DNA from: a virus
Taxonomy: Duplodnaviria > Heunggongvirae > Uroviricota > Caudoviricetes
IMG/VR virus record: IMGVR_UViG_2648501150_000043
Span: 1 to 20,165 of that record
Length of the DNA: 20,165 nucleotides
Direction: 5' to 3' (one strand)
Part shown: positions 4,690 to 15,027 of the stretch, piece after piece
Layout of the letters: the number at the start of each line of letters is the position of its first letter
Position numbering within the stretch: the stretch's first letter is position 1
Position numbers and translations under genes: made by a program
Notes under the pieces: generated by a model
Seen by the model: only the letters and a program-made list of their open reading frames with translations
The model's database searches: none
Told to the model about the DNA's origin: nothing

Positions 4690-4706
4690 ATTACCTTTTA
4701 GGTAAT
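4690..4706. promoter_or_regulatory. Perfect 17-bp palindrome ATTACC-TTTTA-GGTAAT (operator-like site, isolated copy upstream of portal operon)
   Basis: Exact inverted repeat read in sequence; same motif family as the sites flanking the repressor gene; TTGACA at 4670-4675 lies just upstream. Confidence 0.5.
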
Positions 4707-8200: not shown

Positions 8201-8219
8201 TGTTACCACCGAAGTAATA

Positions 8220-8236
8220 ATTACCGTTTTGGTAAT
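8220..8236. promoter_or_regulatory. Perfect 17-bp palindrome ATTACC-GTTTT-GGTAAT about 20 bp upstream of the terS start codon, flanked by further TTACC/GTAAT half-sites (8203-8243)
   Basis: Exact inverted repeat; sits between a minus-strand terminator and terS RBS. Confidence 0.5.
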
Positions 8237-10643: not shown

Positions 10644-10707
10644 GATTTACCTCTCAGGTAATTTAAAACCACAAATGGGTTAATTTCAATAGCAATGCGC
10701 ATATTTT

Positions 10708-10724
10708 ATTACCCTTTTGGTAAT
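10708..10724. promoter_or_regulatory. Perfect 17-bp palindrome ATTACC-CTTTT-GGTAAT between the P-like gene and the resolvase gene; a degenerate copy (TTACC-N6-GGTAAT, 10646-10662) abuts the resolvase start codon
   Basis: Exact inverted repeat in intergenic region 10644-10760; weak hairpin plus T-run on minus strand at 10741-10756 just upstream. Confidence 0.5.
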
Positions 10725-10760: not shown

Positions 10761-11546
10761 TTACTTGATGAGTCCTGCTGCCTTCCCTCGCCTGCATTCC
10801 TCCATGAGCCACTGTGCAGGCGTTATCCCTCCCAGGGTGGCTGCGTTCGGCATGCATCCGAAACTTCGCCCTGGTGGATGGTAGGCGTTACCTGAGCCTG
10901 TCTGTGGTGTGCTCATTGGCTCTGGCTTGGCTTGTATGCTGAGTATCGGATCTGGAATCTGGTGACCGGATGCCACTTTTGCCGACCATTCATCCAGCAG
11001 CTTGCGAGCATGCTTCTCAACTTCAGCCTCACTCAGCTGGCGCTGATACATCGCCCTCCGGGTATCACACACAATCCAGTACATGACCGGGTGACGCCAC
11101 GGGAATCTCTCGGGCCCACCAGGCTGGAGGCTTTTCTCTTTGGCGTAACGGTGAAACTCCCCCATCACGTCATCAATGCTGATCCCCAGAACCATCTTGC
11201 TGTCTTTGCACCACTTGATGAATTGCCCAGGTGAAGGCCAGAACGGTGATTCACTGGCACGGGCATGTCGCATCCCTGCCGATACCTGCTCACGGGTACG
11301 GATGCCACCTTCGGCGAATGCAGCGATCCACTGTTGCTTTGCTGCTGTCTCCTGCGCCGGAGTCTTCAGGTTGGTCTGCTCAGCTGCCGGGAATAGCTGC
11401 TTAAGCTGTTTAAACAGGGCATCTACAAGGCGCTCTGCCGTGATGTTCACAACGTTGTCGCTGCCTGCATATTGACGGTCTGAACCGGTTAAGCTGGCCA
11501 TAGCCTCACCGTCTCGGTTCTGGATGGCGGTAAATACGTTATTCAC
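10761..11546 (-). CDS. Replication protein P-like helicase loader (about 261 aa from GTG 11546; alternative starts GTG 11561 or ATG 11501)
   Basis: Segment GGIRTREQVSAGMRHARASESPFWPSPGQFIKWCKD closely parallels lambda P (NGITTMEQVNAGMRVARRQNRPFLPSPGQFVAWCRE, from memory); GTGA overlap with O-like stop and GGGAGGA RBS. Confidence 0.8.
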   Translation of the reverse strand: MNNVFTAIQNRDGEAMASLTGSDRQYAGSDNVVNITAERLVDALFKQLKQLFPAAEQTNLKTPAQETAAKQQWIAAFAEGGIRTREQVSAGMRHARASESPFWPSPGQFIKWCKDSKMVLGISIDDVMGEFHRYAKEKSLQPGGPERFPWRHPVMYWIVCDTRRAMYQRQLSEAEVEKHARKLLDEWSAKVASGHQIPDPILSIQAKPEPMSTPQTGSGNAYHPPGRSFGCMPNAATLGGITPAQWLMEECRRGKAAGLIK

Positions 11547-12313
11547 AGGAAATCCTCCCACGCCTCTGGACTGTTCCAGTGCGGTACGTTGTTTTCAGGT
11601 GAGGTAAGTTTGTTCTGTCTGCTGATCTGCAGACGTCTGGCAAGTTTTTGCTCCCATTGCGCATGGTGGAAAGCCTTACCCTCGGCCATCCAGTAAACCC
11701 TGAACTCTGCAAGCTCCTGTGGCGTTGGCTGGCAATCCAGGTTAATGCCCTGCAATGAAGACACCCGGAGGAAATCATCCGATGGTGACCAGTGCTCATG
11801 CATGACAAATTTCCCGAATTGCCCCAGTCCACCAGGAGGGACAAAGTTGTTAATCACGGCGTTGTTAGCGTCAGTCCTCTGAGGCACTAAACCCCCAGTT
11901 TTATCGCCCCTCTCCTTCTCTTGGTTATATGACTGGTTAACTGATAGGTTCTGCATCCCGTTTTTGGGATCATTCAACTTCCCGTTTTTGGGATCATTCA
12001 ACTTCCCGTTTTTGGGTATATTCCCAATATTGGTAACATTACCGTTTTTGGGTATGTTTAAAGAGAAAACCCGGCCCCTTCTTGTTGCCCCTTTTCTTTC
12101 TCCTGTATCTGAAATTAGCCCCATTCCGATGAGCGAAATAAGACCAGCCTGAACTGTTTTTTTATTCAGGCTTGTGTCGGTAACCAGGCGTTCGATGCTT
12201 GGATAGCACAGGTTGTATTCATCGGCTCGATCAGCCATCGAGAGCAGGATGAGTTTCAGTGATGAGCTGCCCGGATTTGTTTTCCATGCCCACTCTGTTG
12301 CGTATCTGCTCAT
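11543..12313 (-). CDS. Replication initiator, lambda O-like (256 aa), N-terminal winged-helix DNA-binding domain
   Basis: Position immediately upstream of P-like gene; iterons located inside the coding sequence (encoding repeated PKNGKLND); N-terminal HTH-like region. Confidence 0.75.
   Translation of the reverse strand: MSRYATEWAWKTNPGSSSLKLILLSMADRADEYNLCYPSIERLVTDTSLNKKTVQAGLISLIGMGLISDTGERKGATRRGRVFSLNIPKNGNVTNIGNIPKNGKLNDPKNGKLNDPKNGMQNLSVNQSYNQEKERGDKTGGLVPQRTDANNAVINNFVPPGGLGQFGKFVMHEHWSPSDDFLRVSSLQGINLDCQPTPQELAEFRVYWMAEGKAFHHAQWEQKLARRLQISRQNKLTSPENNVPHWNSPEAWEDFL
11957..12056. repeat. Origin-like iteron array: four direct repeats with core CCGTTTTTGGG (two identical 24-bp copies CCCGTTTTTGGGATCATTCAACTT at 11957-11980 and 11981-12004, variants at 12005 and 12042) followed by AT-rich DNA (11900-11956)
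   Basis: Repeats read directly; located inside initiator gene, as for ori-lambda. Confidence 0.7.
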
Positions 12314-12328
12314 GGTAAATACCTGTCG

Positions 12329-12529
12329 TCAGCTTGAGTGTTGCAGGCTGGCTTCGGCCATGAGCTGCTTTATTTCTGCCTGGCGGCGCAGGCTCGTGTT
12401 GATGGCGCATGTAACGCAGTGCCCGTTGTAAACGTAGCGCTCACTGTCATGACCATGCTTACACTGTTTTCCGGTGTAATAACGCTTAAGACCTGCCTTT
12501 GCAGCGTCAAGGCGAGTAATAATCTCCAT
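12329..12529 (-). CDS. Hypothetical small Cys/His-rich (zinc-binding?) protein, 66 aa
   Basis: ORF with GAGG RBS between Cro-like gene and O-like gene; C-x-H-x-H ... C-x2-C pattern. Confidence 0.5.
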   Translation of the reverse strand: MEIITRLDAAKAGLKRYYTGKQCKHGHDSERYVYNGHCVTCAINTSLRRQAEIKQLMAEASLQHSS

Positions 12530-12677: not shown

Positions 12678-12911
12678 TTATCGGTCGTAGAAGAAGAGCA
12701 CTAATTCAGGTTTAGACTTTGTCCATTCGCGGGAGCGACATGCTTTAAACAGCCCGTCCATCAGTCGCTTACCCGGCATCTTGCGGCGCCCGGTCAGGTG
12801 AGTCTGGATGTAATGACTGGTGGTTCCGGCTTCATCTGCAAATGCTTCACGCTCATCAGGAGACAGTCCCAGCCAGTGCTTTTTGAAATCAAATTTTTTT
12901 TCGTCACTCAT
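12678..12911 (-). CDS. Cro/cII-like HTH transcriptional regulator (77 aa), first gene of the rightward early operon
   Basis: Divergent from repressor gene across operator cluster; HTH-like segment AFADEAGTTSHYIQTHLTG; size typical of Cro. Confidence 0.55.
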   Translation of the reverse strand: MSDEKKFDFKKHWLGLSPDEREAFADEAGTTSHYIQTHLTGRRKMPGKRLMDGLFKACRSREWTKSKPELVLFFYDR

Positions 12912-12945
12912 ATTTTGCTTATCTCAGCCTGTCTATTCATATCTG

Positions 12946-13013
12946 AATTATTACCTTTCTGGTGAAAAAATCAATGATTATTACCGTTATGGTAACTTTA
13001 CCTTTATGGTAAT
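12946..13013. promoter_or_regulatory. OR-like control region: three ATTACC-N5-GGTAAT-type sites (12950-12966 imperfect, 12980-12996, 12997-13013) overlapping a minus-strand promoter (-35 TTGATT at 12974-12969, 17-bp spacer, -10 ATAATT at 12951-12946)
   Basis: Palindromes and hexamers read from sequence in the divergent intergenic region between Cro-like and cI-like genes. Confidence 0.6.
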
Positions 13014-13066
13014 ATTCATTTAAATTTAGTCAGTTAGGTAACATTAAATGGACAAATACAATAGCT

Positions 13067-13663
13067 ATGAAAAGTATTTATGACATAAGACGCAAAAACC
13101 TTAACGAAATCATTCGCCGGGATTTCGATGATACCCAGTTGCGCTTTGCCGAACGTGTGAAGCGTTCGCAGAACCTGGTCAACAGGTGGTGCACTGGCAT
13201 CAAAAACATCGGACCAAATGCAGCGCGTATCATTGAGGAAGCAGCGCGCAAAGAAAAGTTCTGGCTTGATGTCGATCACGAACTGGACGCGGTACAGGCT
13301 GATATCTTTATTCCGGCCACTGATGATGGCGAATGGACTGTAGAGAAGCAGGCTGCAGCCACGCTCAATGCCTGGATGAGAAAGAACACGGAAATGACAT
13401 CAGAAAAGAAAGTTGCTGTAGCAGCTGGTATTGGCCCGGCCACAGTTAACCGGATTATGAAAGCGGAAGTCAGCACAACTATCGGCGTTCTTTCCTCCCT
13501 GGCGCGCGCGTTCGGGCATGAAGCATACGAGATGATTATTCCCGTCGGCGCTCCTGGTGTTATCGACTACGACCACAGGTTGTATGCAGCTCTGCCTCAG
13601 GAAGAGAAAAACAAGATCACCTCATTCATTAACTTCGTGTTTGAGCAGAACAAAAGCAAGTAA
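13067..13663 (+). CDS. cI-like prophage repressor with two HTH-type regions and no LexA/S24 autocleavage domain (198 aa)
   Basis: Flanked on both sides by triplets of the same palindrome; divergent from Cro-like gene; HTH-like segments at N-terminus and around residues 120-150; no Ala-Gly/Ser-Lys protease signature seen; possible -10 TACAAT at 13057-13062 only 4 nt before ATG (leaderless-like). Confidence 0.65.
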   Translation: MKSIYDIRRKNLNEIIRRDFDDTQLRFAERVKRSQNLVNRWCTGIKNIGPNAARIIEEAARKEKFWLDVDHELDAVQADIFIPATDDGEWTVEKQAAATLNAWMRKNTEMTSEKKVAVAAGIGPATVNRIMKAEVSTTIGVLSSLARAFGHEAYEMIIPVGAPGVIDYDHRLYAALPQEEKNKITSFINFVFEQNKSK

Positions 13664-13730
13664 TCCCCCGCCATTCTGACGCTTTACCTGCCCGATGGCG
13701 GTAAGCTCGCGCCTCACGCAATTACCAAAA

Positions 13731-13876
13731 CGGTAATTTTTTTCTCGTCATACCTATTGACACAATCACTTTTTGATCTGATTATTACCCAAAAGGTAAT
13801 ACATGAGCGCATCGCTCAGGCAGAAACCACCACTTCGTGGTTTTCCTGCATCTCCAGGTATTACCAAAATGGTAAT
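13731..13876. promoter_or_regulatory. OL-like control region: three perfect ATTACC-N5-GGTAAT sites (13731-13747, 13794-13810, 13860-13876) with a plus-strand promoter (-35 TTGACA 13767-13772, 17-bp spacer, -10 GATTAT 13790-13795) overlapping the middle site
   Basis: Exact palindromes and consensus -35 read from sequence; regular 63-66 bp centre spacing. Confidence 0.6.
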
Positions 13877-13888
13877 AGAGAGGTTCGT

Positions 13889-14038
13889 ATGCAGTGGAAA
13901 GTCATCAATGGTTGGTACTGCGTTACAGCTTGCGGGCTGATGAGCTGGAAGTTCCGCACGCTGGGTGAAGCAATGAACTGGGTATTCGTCAGCAAGCTGG
14001 CGGTAAAAACGGAAATGGATATGGGGGTGAGTAAGTGA
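13889..14038 (+). CDS. Hypothetical small protein (49 aa), first ORF of the leftward early operon
   Basis: ATG at 13889 with AGAGAGG RBS 6 nt upstream, located just after last operator; the longer track ORF (13757) would span the operators and promoter. Confidence 0.4.
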   Translation: MQWKVINGWYCVTACGLMSWKFRTLGEAMNWVFVSKLAVKTEMDMGVSK

Positions 14039-15027
14039 GCGAATTAGCAATTATCGAAATTGCGCCAGATATGGCGCCAAGCATTTACGTAGAAAACGGT
14101 CTGGAAAAGTTCCTCGAACAGATCCGCGAAAGCGTTAACGAAGTTCCGGACCTGAGCACTGCCAAAGGTCGTGCCCGCATTGCATCTCTGGCAGCACAGG
14201 TTTCTCGCAGTAAAACAGCAGTTGAAAAGCCTGGTCGAGATTACCTTCGTCATCTGAAAGAAGCCGTCAAACCTGCTGAGGCTGAACTGCGTCGATTTGT
14301 ATCAGCTTGCGATGAGATGCGCGATGAGGTTCGCCGCCCACTTACCGAATGGGAGGCCGAGCAGGAACGCATCAAGGCTGAAGAAGCCATGAATGTGCTG
14401 CACGCCGAAGCACTGGAGATGAACATCAAGTTCGATCAGGAGCGGGCTGCCAAGTTCGAAGCGGATCACGAGATGGCCCTGCTGATGAACGACGCATTCG
14501 ACCGAGAAGCGAAGGCGAAAGCAGAAGAAGCAGAGCGCCAGCGCATTGCTCATGAAGAAGAGTTGAAGCGCCAGGCGGAAGAAAAGGCCAGGCGTGAAGC
14601 TGAAGAGAAAATAGAGCGTGAACGCGCTGAATCTGCCCGTCGTGAGGCTGAATTAAAGCTCAAGGCAGAGCAAGCAGAGCGTAACCGCATTGCCACAGAG
14701 CAAAAAGCTGAAGCAGAGAAGAAGGAAGCCGCAGATCGTGCCGAGCGCGAAAAACAGGAAGCTATCGCAGTTGAGCAACGCAAAGCGCAGGAAGAAGCCG
14801 ATCGCATCAAGCGTGAAGCTGAAGCGAAAGAAGTAGCCCGTCTGGCGGAAGAGAAGCGCATCGCTGATGAAGCGGCAGCACGCGCTGCTGATGTAGAGCA
14901 CCGTCGTGCCATTAATGCTGCTGCGGTTCAGGCGCTCATTGAACAGGGTATTCCTGATGACTGGGCGAAAGCATGTGTTGTCGCCATCGCTCGCGGGAAA
15001 GTTCCAGCAACAACCATCAACTACTGA
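14035..15027 (+). CDS. Hypothetical protein with long Glu/Arg/Lys/Ala-rich coiled-coil or single-alpha-helix-like central domain (330 aa)
   Basis: GTG start overlapping upstream stop (GTGA); about 200 residues of charged repeats (AEEAERQRIAHEEELKRQAEEKARREAEEK...). Confidence 0.7.
   Translation: MSELAIIEIAPDMAPSIYVENGLEKFLEQIRESVNEVPDLSTAKGRARIASLAAQVSRSKTAVEKPGRDYLRHLKEAVKPAEAELRRFVSACDEMRDEVRRPLTEWEAEQERIKAEEAMNVLHAEALEMNIKFDQERAAKFEADHEMALLMNDAFDREAKAKAEEAERQRIAHEEELKRQAEEKARREAEEKIERERAESARREAELKLKAEQAERNRIATEQKAEAEKKEAADRAEREKQEAIAVEQRKAQEEADRIKREAEAKEVARLAEEKRIADEAAARAADVEHRRAINAAAVQALIEQGIPDDWAKACVVAIARGKVPATTINY

Follow-up and report, generated by a model that had tools for sequence, protein, structure and literature searches.

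An epsilon15/SPC32H-type immunity repressor lacking an S24 autocleavage domain in a Uetakevirus prophage segment, and its probable control by a distant LexA-regulated antirepressor

Repressors of the lambda cI/LexA family consist of a helix-turn-helix (HTH) or winged-helix N-terminal domain joined to a C-terminal Peptidase_S24 domain. A second kind of lytic switch, the Rep/Ant system of Salmonella phage SPC32H, was reportedly the subject of papers by Kim and Ryu in 2013 (J Virol 87:11775) and by Kim et al. in 2016 (PNAS 113:E2480). The abstracts of both papers are said to agree that Rep is inhibited by a LexA-controlled antirepressor, Ant, and that of the 2013 paper reportedly sets Ant apart structurally from the antirepressors of 186 (Tum) and of Gifsy/Fels-2. 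The system is already described both genetically and structurally (crystal structures 5D4Z and 5D50), and what we report here about the switch itself is already known.

In the descriptions published for several Salmonella prophages, including the SPC32H group, self-cleavage of LexA permits synthesis of an antirepressor, which then inhibits the phage repressor through protein-protein contact. Rep is the demonstrated repressor of SPC32H, and the published descriptions attribute its inactivation to Ant, not to repressor cleavage: Rep occupies DNA as a tetramer, an Ant tetramer engages two Rep dimers, disrupting the Rep tetramer, and Rep is trapped in a non-functional state. As outlined in one account (PMC9986798), Rep of SPC32H binds DNA through its N-terminal domain and dimerises through a middle domain, which is followed by a C-terminal association domain (CAD); the last of these forms tetramers, binds Ant and is structurally akin to the tetramerisation domain of p53. 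The repressor Rco of plasmid pLS20 resembles Rep in having an N-terminal HTH DNA-binding domain and a C-terminal strand-helix tetramerisation domain, but the middle dimerisation domain is an addition found in Rep; the shared TetDloop architecture (Rco of pLS20, p53) has been associated with looping of DNA and with regulation through antirepressors (PMC9986798). Non-cleavable repressors that are neutralised by a small protein expressed from a LexA-box promoter are also known from the 186 Tum and Gifsy/Fels-2 systems (Lemire et al. 2011, PMC3121763). SPC32H Ant differs from these in that, as far as its published description goes, it hits the oligomerisation domain of the repressor instead of competing for the DNA-binding surface.

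The sequence analysed here (hereafter the window) is the whole stretch of 20,165 nucleotides corresponding to positions 1 to 20,165 of IMG/VR virus record IMGVR_UViG_2648501150_000043. It is a segment of an epsilon15-like (Uetakevirus) prophage that runs from the capsid genes to int and is collinear with SPC32H read backwards, in the order capsid, portal, terminase, genome end, early-right, replication, cro-like, rep, recombination and int; in relatives, int abuts guaA. The DNA around rep is 94-95% identical to that of Salmonella phages epsilon15, SPN1S, SPC32H, SPC32N and their relatives, and a prophage of Escherichia coli E2348/69 is similarly close. The window and SPC32H share the same gene order from capsid to int and match almost base for base in the operators flanking rep and in the intergenic regions; they differ in five conservative or surface-type substitutions in Rep and in the accessory early genes, which are mosaic. 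Contig JHRJ01000003.1 (GCA_001267345.1) is almost identical to the window, the differences across 19.4 kb being two mismatches and a single indel of 48 bp, and the window-specific 235-aa protein is encoded both there and in a second near-identical contig, SRR21136863_91. An exact 32-mer scan of species-representative genomes located the same immunity type in Citrobacter braakii and C. werkmanii at 89-97% identity. No known RNAs were detected in the window, as both an Rfam scan and a tRNA scan were empty.

An earlier note on this DNA, written from the sequence alone, had placed an immunity repressor gene at positions 13067-13663, and this assignment is confirmed. The open reading frame (+ strand) encodes 198 aa from an ATG codon at 13067, the earliest possible start after the upstream stop, and its product is similar over its full length to SPC32H Rep, with which it shares 193 of 198 residues (97.5% identity); the five substitutions are L17R, E86D, D107N, I165V and M172L. 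The product is also 98.5% identical to the epsilon15 repressor (AAO06101). A phmmer search aligned residues 1-198 with PDB entry 5D50_A, the Rep-Ant complex (E=4e-128), and residues 92-198 are identical at 103 of 107 positions to the crystallised fragment 5D4Z (Rep 92-198). In the SPC32H GenBank record the corresponding genes are annotated as rep and ant (the latter SPC32H_020). The assembly collection lists an identical protein in 258 blocks, and 44 homologues are 41-98% identical and all about 195 aa in length. Full-length similarity, a three-part architecture and TTACC-N5-GGTAA operators, the marks of the SPC32H/epsilon15 Rep family, are all present in the window. On these sequence grounds, we consider it very probable that the gene is the rep of an epsilon15/SPC32H-like (Uetakevirus) prophage and encodes a non-cleavable repressor that would be switched off by a distant, LexA-controlled Ant.

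The three domains outlined for SPC32H Rep can be laid over the gene with approximate boundaries (all on the + strand). Codons 1-70 (13067-13276) would specify the N-terminal HTH DNA-binding domain, as judged from conservation, the structural model, PHROG matches and the literature. Codons 92-160 (13340-13546) correspond to the HTH-fold middle dimerisation domain on the evidence of Pfam, the model, 5D4Z and the literature, and codons 161-198 (13547-13660) to the C-terminal tetramerisation and Ant-binding domain (the CAD, a p53-like TetDloop) on that of conservation, the model and the literature. The HTH-like segments that had been noticed in both halves of the protein are real. Pfam HTH_3 matches residues 109-150 in two stretches (E=1.6e-8), while the N-terminal half has weak Pfam matches only, to YdaS_toxin (residues 25-61) and HigA (residues 23-78). 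Repressor families of the PHROG collection match both halves, the N-terminal match covering residues 1-86. The AlphaFold model of Rep (14 family members) is all-helical and contains two bundles, at residues 4-59 (helices 4-19, 24-31, 35-43 and 50-59) and 92-156, which are separated by a disordered linker at approximately 60-91 and followed by a long helix at 178-196. Following the domain plan published for SPC32H, the second HTH-like half is the middle dimerisation domain and not a second DNA-binding domain. A recent duplication as the origin of the two HTH domains was considered and dropped: BLASTP of residues 1-90 against residues 91-198 gave no significant similarity (E=0.21).

Conservation follows the same plan. 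In the alignment of the Rep family, conservation is highest over the first 70 residues, which include 25 invariant positions, among them N36, L37, R40 and W41 within one helix, which we predict to be the recognition helix. A further conserved stretch lies at the C-terminus (I166, Y168, L176, F187, I188, F190 and Q194).

Rep was said in the earlier note to have none of the features of a LexA/cI-type peptidase, and the one structural finding named there as contradicting this, an S24 fold in the C-terminal half, was sought by Pfam, AlphaFold modelling and Foldseek with a negative outcome each time. Peptidase_S24 is unmatched in Rep by Pfam even at E≤1 and is absent from all 44 homologues (0/44). 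A Foldseek search of the PDB with the model returned, among the best 50 matches listed, only Rep itself followed by XRE-type HTH regulators, with no S24 structure among them. Rep contains a single Ala-Gly dipeptide, A120-G121, and no Cys-Gly dipeptide anywhere; linker residues 71-91 contain neither. A120-G121 is not a linker cleavage site, as it sits between helices 113-120 and 124-131, where the second HTH turns; G121 is invariant across the family. A Ser-Lys dyad is likewise missing, because there is no S24 domain in Rep to hold one. Rep is therefore not a member of the LexA/lambda cI S24 family, having neither the S24 domain nor the cleavage site nor the dyad, each of which was looked for.

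These results also bear on the proposal that Rep is a cryptic LexA/lambda cI-type repressor, with an S24 domain that has diverged in the C-terminal half and retains RecA-stimulated self-cleavage. The lone Ala-Gly at 120-121 is the sole point in favour of such a protein, and its location in an HTH turn speaks against it. So do the failure of S24 to match either Rep at E≤1 or any of the 44 homologues, the 103/107 identity of the C-terminal half to crystallised 5D4Z, the all-helical model (the S24 fold is made of beta-strands) and a fold search whose best 50 listed matches are HTH proteins only. We regard this proposal as effectively refuted and its probability as negligible. The resemblance of Rep to the lambda cI/LexA family lies elsewhere: in its role as immunity repressor, in the operator triplets that flank its gene, in a repressor gene that is co-directional with a PL-like operon and in oligomerisation through the C-terminal part. 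The difference is that Rep lacks the S24 domain, the cleavage site and the Ser-Lys dyad, and its inactivation would be a reversible sequestration and not proteolysis.

The operator triplets reported on both sides of rep were recovered by pattern search, with three predicted sites on each side. Over the whole window, TTACC-N5-GGTAA has 13 matches with no more than one mismatch, against an expectation of 0.18 derived from dinucleotide-preserving shuffles of the window. The left triplet lies between the cro-like gene and rep (12951-12965, with one mismatch, 12981-12995 and 12998-13012), and the right triplet is 3' of rep and 5' of the early recombination operon (13722-13736, 13785-13799 and 13861-13875). 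Dispersed predicted Rep operators are found upstream of the gp3/portal operon (4691-4705; equivalent to epsilon15 2931-2947), just upstream of the start of the small-terminase gene (8221-8235; equivalent to epsilon15 12-27) and upstream of a RuvC-like gene (two sites, 10647-10661 and 10709-10723, for which one equivalent is annotated in epsilon15, at 35906-35922). Repressor-binding sites in epsilon15 were reportedly annotated by Kropinski et al. in 2007. The epsilon15 record (AY150271.2) lists the equivalents of the right triplet as 'repressor' protein_bind features, and as it annotates the equivalent dispersed sites too, both sets are already known. In the positions of the right triplet and of the sites preceding the terminase gene, the RuvC-like gene and the portal operon, epsilon15 agrees with the window. 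The left triplet, on the gp39 side of rep, has no annotation in the epsilon15 record; it is nevertheless present, and its sites are conserved in 11 relatives. TTACC-N5-GGTAA still occurs on both sides of rep in loci where Rep is only 41-65% identical.

Two candidate lytic promoters, both recognised by consensus match in a promoter scan, overlap these operators. A PL-like early promoter (TTGACA-17-GATTAT, 10/12 consensus; 13757-13785, + strand) is conserved in relatives and directed at the recombination operon; the predicted operator at 13785-13799 overlaps both its -10 hexamer and its start region. The leftward candidate (TTGATT-16-AATAAT, 9/12 consensus; 12947-12974, - strand), which points to the cro-like and replication genes, overlaps the operator at 12951-12965. 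The cro-like gene itself (12678-12911, - strand) is divergent from rep and encodes a Cro/CII-like regulator of 77 aa, the equivalent of epsilon15 gp39 (phrog_35, 'transcriptional repressor', E=3e-11); every related locus has a gene of 76-81 aa in the same place. The overlap of operator and promoter on either side of rep suggests that the lytic promoters are targets of Rep.

The earlier note had observed that no antirepressor candidate is evident in the window, and our searches bear this out. A tblastn search with SPC32H Ant gave nothing significant (best E=0.27), and a CTGT-N8-ACAG LexA box is absent throughout the window. The sequence CTGTTTTTTTATTCAG at 12154 was considered as a LexA box and dismissed, being inside a replication gene and lacking the ACAG arm. 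In SPC32H, epsilon15 and E2348/69, ant is flanked by the tail genes on one side and the tailspike gene on the other, and in E2348/69 its end is 12.2 kb left of the base aligned with position 1 of the window. With ant expected 12.2 kb beyond position 1, its absence from the window is a boundary effect and is to be expected.

Among the relatives, rep and ant occur together in 12 of 12 phage records, those with this rep being the very ones with ant, and in all six E. coli genomes that carry this rep; in E2348/69 the two genes are 25.1 kb apart. The SPC32H ant gene encodes 86 aa; epsilon15 gp19 is identical to its product at 82 of 86 positions and is preceded by the same LexA box. In nine copies of ant that were examined, the Ant proteins are 80-100% identical to one another, a Rep operator is present at approximately -91 (9/9) and a perfect LexA box, CTGTATGTTTATACAG, ends 21 nt before the ATG codon (8/9). 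The exception is the copy of E2348/69 (NC_011601), which has one extra T within the box. Ant homologues (n=172) were found in Salmonella, E. coli, Citrobacter, Klebsiella, Enterobacter and Yersinia, and for three pairs of a diverged Rep and a diverged Ant, the longest contig has an identical length (239,482, 192,146 and 96,023 bp), an indirect sign that the two may be encoded on one contig.

It is conceivable that the source prophage kept rep intact and lost or crippled the module of ant and its LexA box, which would leave it non-inducible or constitutively leaky. Its ant region falls outside the window, the LexA box of E2348/69 (NC_011601) contains a one-base insertion, and SPC32N is reported by Kim and Ryu in 2013 to be set apart from SPC32H by a point mutation in the LexA box, with constitutive Ant as the outcome. 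Against such a loss stand the finding of ant in every one of the 18 relatives that carry this rep, the perfect box in eight of the nine copies examined and the appearance of the segment itself, which looks intact, with full-length open reading frames for int, recombination, replication, terminase, portal and capsid proteins. We consider the loss or crippling of ant improbable. The suggestion that induction depends on a separate, LexA-controlled antirepressor instead finds support in the 97.5% identity to SPC32H Rep, the presence of ant in all 18 relatives and the Rep/Ant mechanism as published; from that identity in particular, we infer that the prophage represented by the window probably follows the route from LexA to Ant.

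A working model for the lysogen can be drawn from these comparisons. Rep tetramers bound to the TTACC-N5-GGTAA palindromes would keep the lytic genes off, the triplets on either side of rep blocking the divergent promoters, leftward for the cro-like and replication genes and rightward (PL-like) for recombination. Single operators before the packaging, morphogenesis and ant/tailspike transcription units would add further repression. Upon DNA damage, inactivation of host LexA would release the promoter of the 86-aa ant, and the Ant tetramer would bind the C-terminal domains of Rep and take the Rep tetramer off the DNA; RecA-stimulated self-cleavage of Rep would play no part in induction. The repressor of phage ZX5 is a 42%-identical homologue; in that phage, overexpression of Rep abolishes free phage, and overexpression of Ant lowers lysogeny and prophage titres about 1000-fold.

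A separate question concerns the transcript from which Rep is made during maintenance of lysogeny. The hexamer TACAAT (13057-13062, + strand), described in the earlier note as a -10-like element that ends 4 nt before the ATG, was read directly at this position, where it is followed by AGCT and then by the rep start codon. It is a candidate -10 element for a maintenance promoter, with a poor -35 (TAGGTA) and a combined score of 8/12. The proposal that rep mRNA is leaderless, with the A of the start codon as its first base, in the manner of lambda cI from PRM, has several points in its favour. TACAAT matches the -10 consensus at five of six positions, and none of AGGA, GGAG, GAGG and AAGG occurs within 20 nt of the start codon in the window. 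In eight lineages, the only Shine-Dalgarno-like sequence within this distance of the ATG is a GAGG at -19 in lineage L020, which is too distant to act. Comparable hexamers stand at the same distance in L013 (CATAAT), L015 (TTCAAT) and L019 (TTTAAT), so that together with the window/SPC32H lineage, four of seven non-redundant lineages have one, and the first nine codons of rep are almost invariant across the family. Moreover, overexpression of Ant in ZX5 cuts the rep transcript by 75%, which would fit a PRM-like promoter activated by Rep.

The spacing is unfavourable to a leaderless transcript. E. coli RNA polymerase usually initiates 6-9 nt downstream of the -10 element, with an optimum of 7, which is also the distance at lambda PRM. 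Counted from the last base of the hexamer, the A of the rep ATG is at 5 nt, two bases too close; at the optimum of 7 nt, initiation would be expected at G13069 or beyond, which would leave the transcript without its AUG. The poor -35 counts in the same direction, as does the fact that the TACAAT promoter was not called in the promoter scan. With an equal score, TTTACC-18-TAAATT at 12997-13026 is an alternative candidate whose transcript would carry a leader of approximately 34 nt. Furthermore, no hexamer is found by the ATG in L017, L018 and L020, the least conserved upstream of the seven lineages. Close relatives are too alike to inform this comparison and the distant lineages gave a mixed answer, and our literature search found no mapped transcription start for rep. 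On balance, we hold a leaderless start at the ATG to be possible but somewhat doubtful.

More broadly, rep mRNA may be leaderless or lack a Shine-Dalgarno sequence, and may be transcribed from a weak, Rep-dependent, PRM-like promoter whose discriminator, at 4 nt, is very short. The p53-like tetramerisation domain of Rep may bridge the two operator triplets across the 0.7-0.9 kb between them, forming a repression loop around rep, and the first right-hand operator may double as a terminator hairpin for the gene. It is rather unlikely that both a leaderless or Shine-Dalgarno-less rep mRNA and a repression loop bridging the triplets apply here; both are possibly undescribed.

The inference drawn in the earlier note from the raw sequence was sound, and the finding itself brings no new biology. 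Its use lies in annotation: the window would be described as part of an SOS-inducible, epsilon15-like prophage whose switch is probably composed of Rep and a distant LexA-controlled Ant and is not of the cI type. The case also illustrates how a repressor without an S24 domain predicts an antirepressor, whose own gene may be over 25 kb away, as in E2348/69 (25.1 kb).

Pattern matching with the operator consensus of the immunity repressor Rep (TTACC-N5-GGTAA) places sites at 4691-4705, 8221-8235, 10647-10661 and 10709-10723, in addition to six sites around rep and an operator-like site with one mismatch at 8203. In the window, such dispersed operators stand before the transcription units for packaging and morphogenesis and before the early-right units. 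When read on the plus strand, the 5-bp spacer at the centre of the operator is rich in T or pyrimidines in all seven of the sites preceding minus-strand genes and A-rich in all three of those preceding plus-strand genes. Because the composition of the spacer tracks the strand of the genes that follow, the predicted Rep palindromes have a polarity that follows the direction in which the lytic genes are transcribed. Dispersed operator sites are already annotated in the record of the related phage epsilon15; no description of their polarity was found in the literature searched.

A TTACC-N11-GGTAA element lies directly past the rep stop codon (13684-13704). It is followed by the first right-hand operator and a T-run (13721-13744; AATTACC-AAAAC-GGTAATT, then seven T), which as RNA is predicted by folding to form a weak hairpin with a U-run. 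This operator could have a second role as the rep terminator; its fold is no better than that of shuffled sequence (z = -1.1).

The replication-initiator gene (11543-12313, minus strand) carries a 24-bp unit that is repeated perfectly in tandem for 2.5 copies (11956-12016) and encodes a reiterated KNGKLNDP-type peptide. This repeat looks like an iteron-type origin within the initiator gene, as is likewise found in lambda O. Its copy number appears to vary between isolates: contig JHRJ01000003.1, which is nearly identical to the window, carries two extra copies (a 48-bp indel). Between the initiator and the cro-like gene is a 66-aa Cys/His-rich ORF (CKHGH...CVTC; 12329-12529, minus strand) matching phrog_1081 (unknown function, E=4e-36), and several of the relatives examined have a 64-67-aa gene in the same position. 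Directly downstream of the PL-like promoter, a plus-strand gene (14035-15027) encodes a 330-aa protein assigned to phrog_1376 (unknown function), with no Pfam match. Its very long middle part is rich in Glu, Ala, Lys and Arg and is probably a coiled-coil. The protein is found in only some relatives.

In the E. coli E2348/69 record NC_011601 (11400-11441 of that locus, L011), the LexA box 5' of the antirepressor gene ant contains one additional T (CTGT-N9-ACAG), and the same insertion is inferred from match length in LT827011 and LT903847. A newer assembly of this strain, CP059840.2, has the normal N8 box. The extra T reflects one of two things: a sequencing error in a homopolymer, or variation between stocks that would derepress Ant.

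In Rep homologues down to 41% identity, the TTACC/GGTAA half-sites and 5-bp spacer are unchanged (L013, L015 and L017-L020, diverged rep loci compared with 12912-13066 of the window), as is the predicted recognition helix. A single DNA-binding specificity may therefore be common to the whole Rep family of Salmonella, E. coli, Klebsiella, Enterobacter and Cronobacter. If true, this poses the question of what determines immunity specificity.
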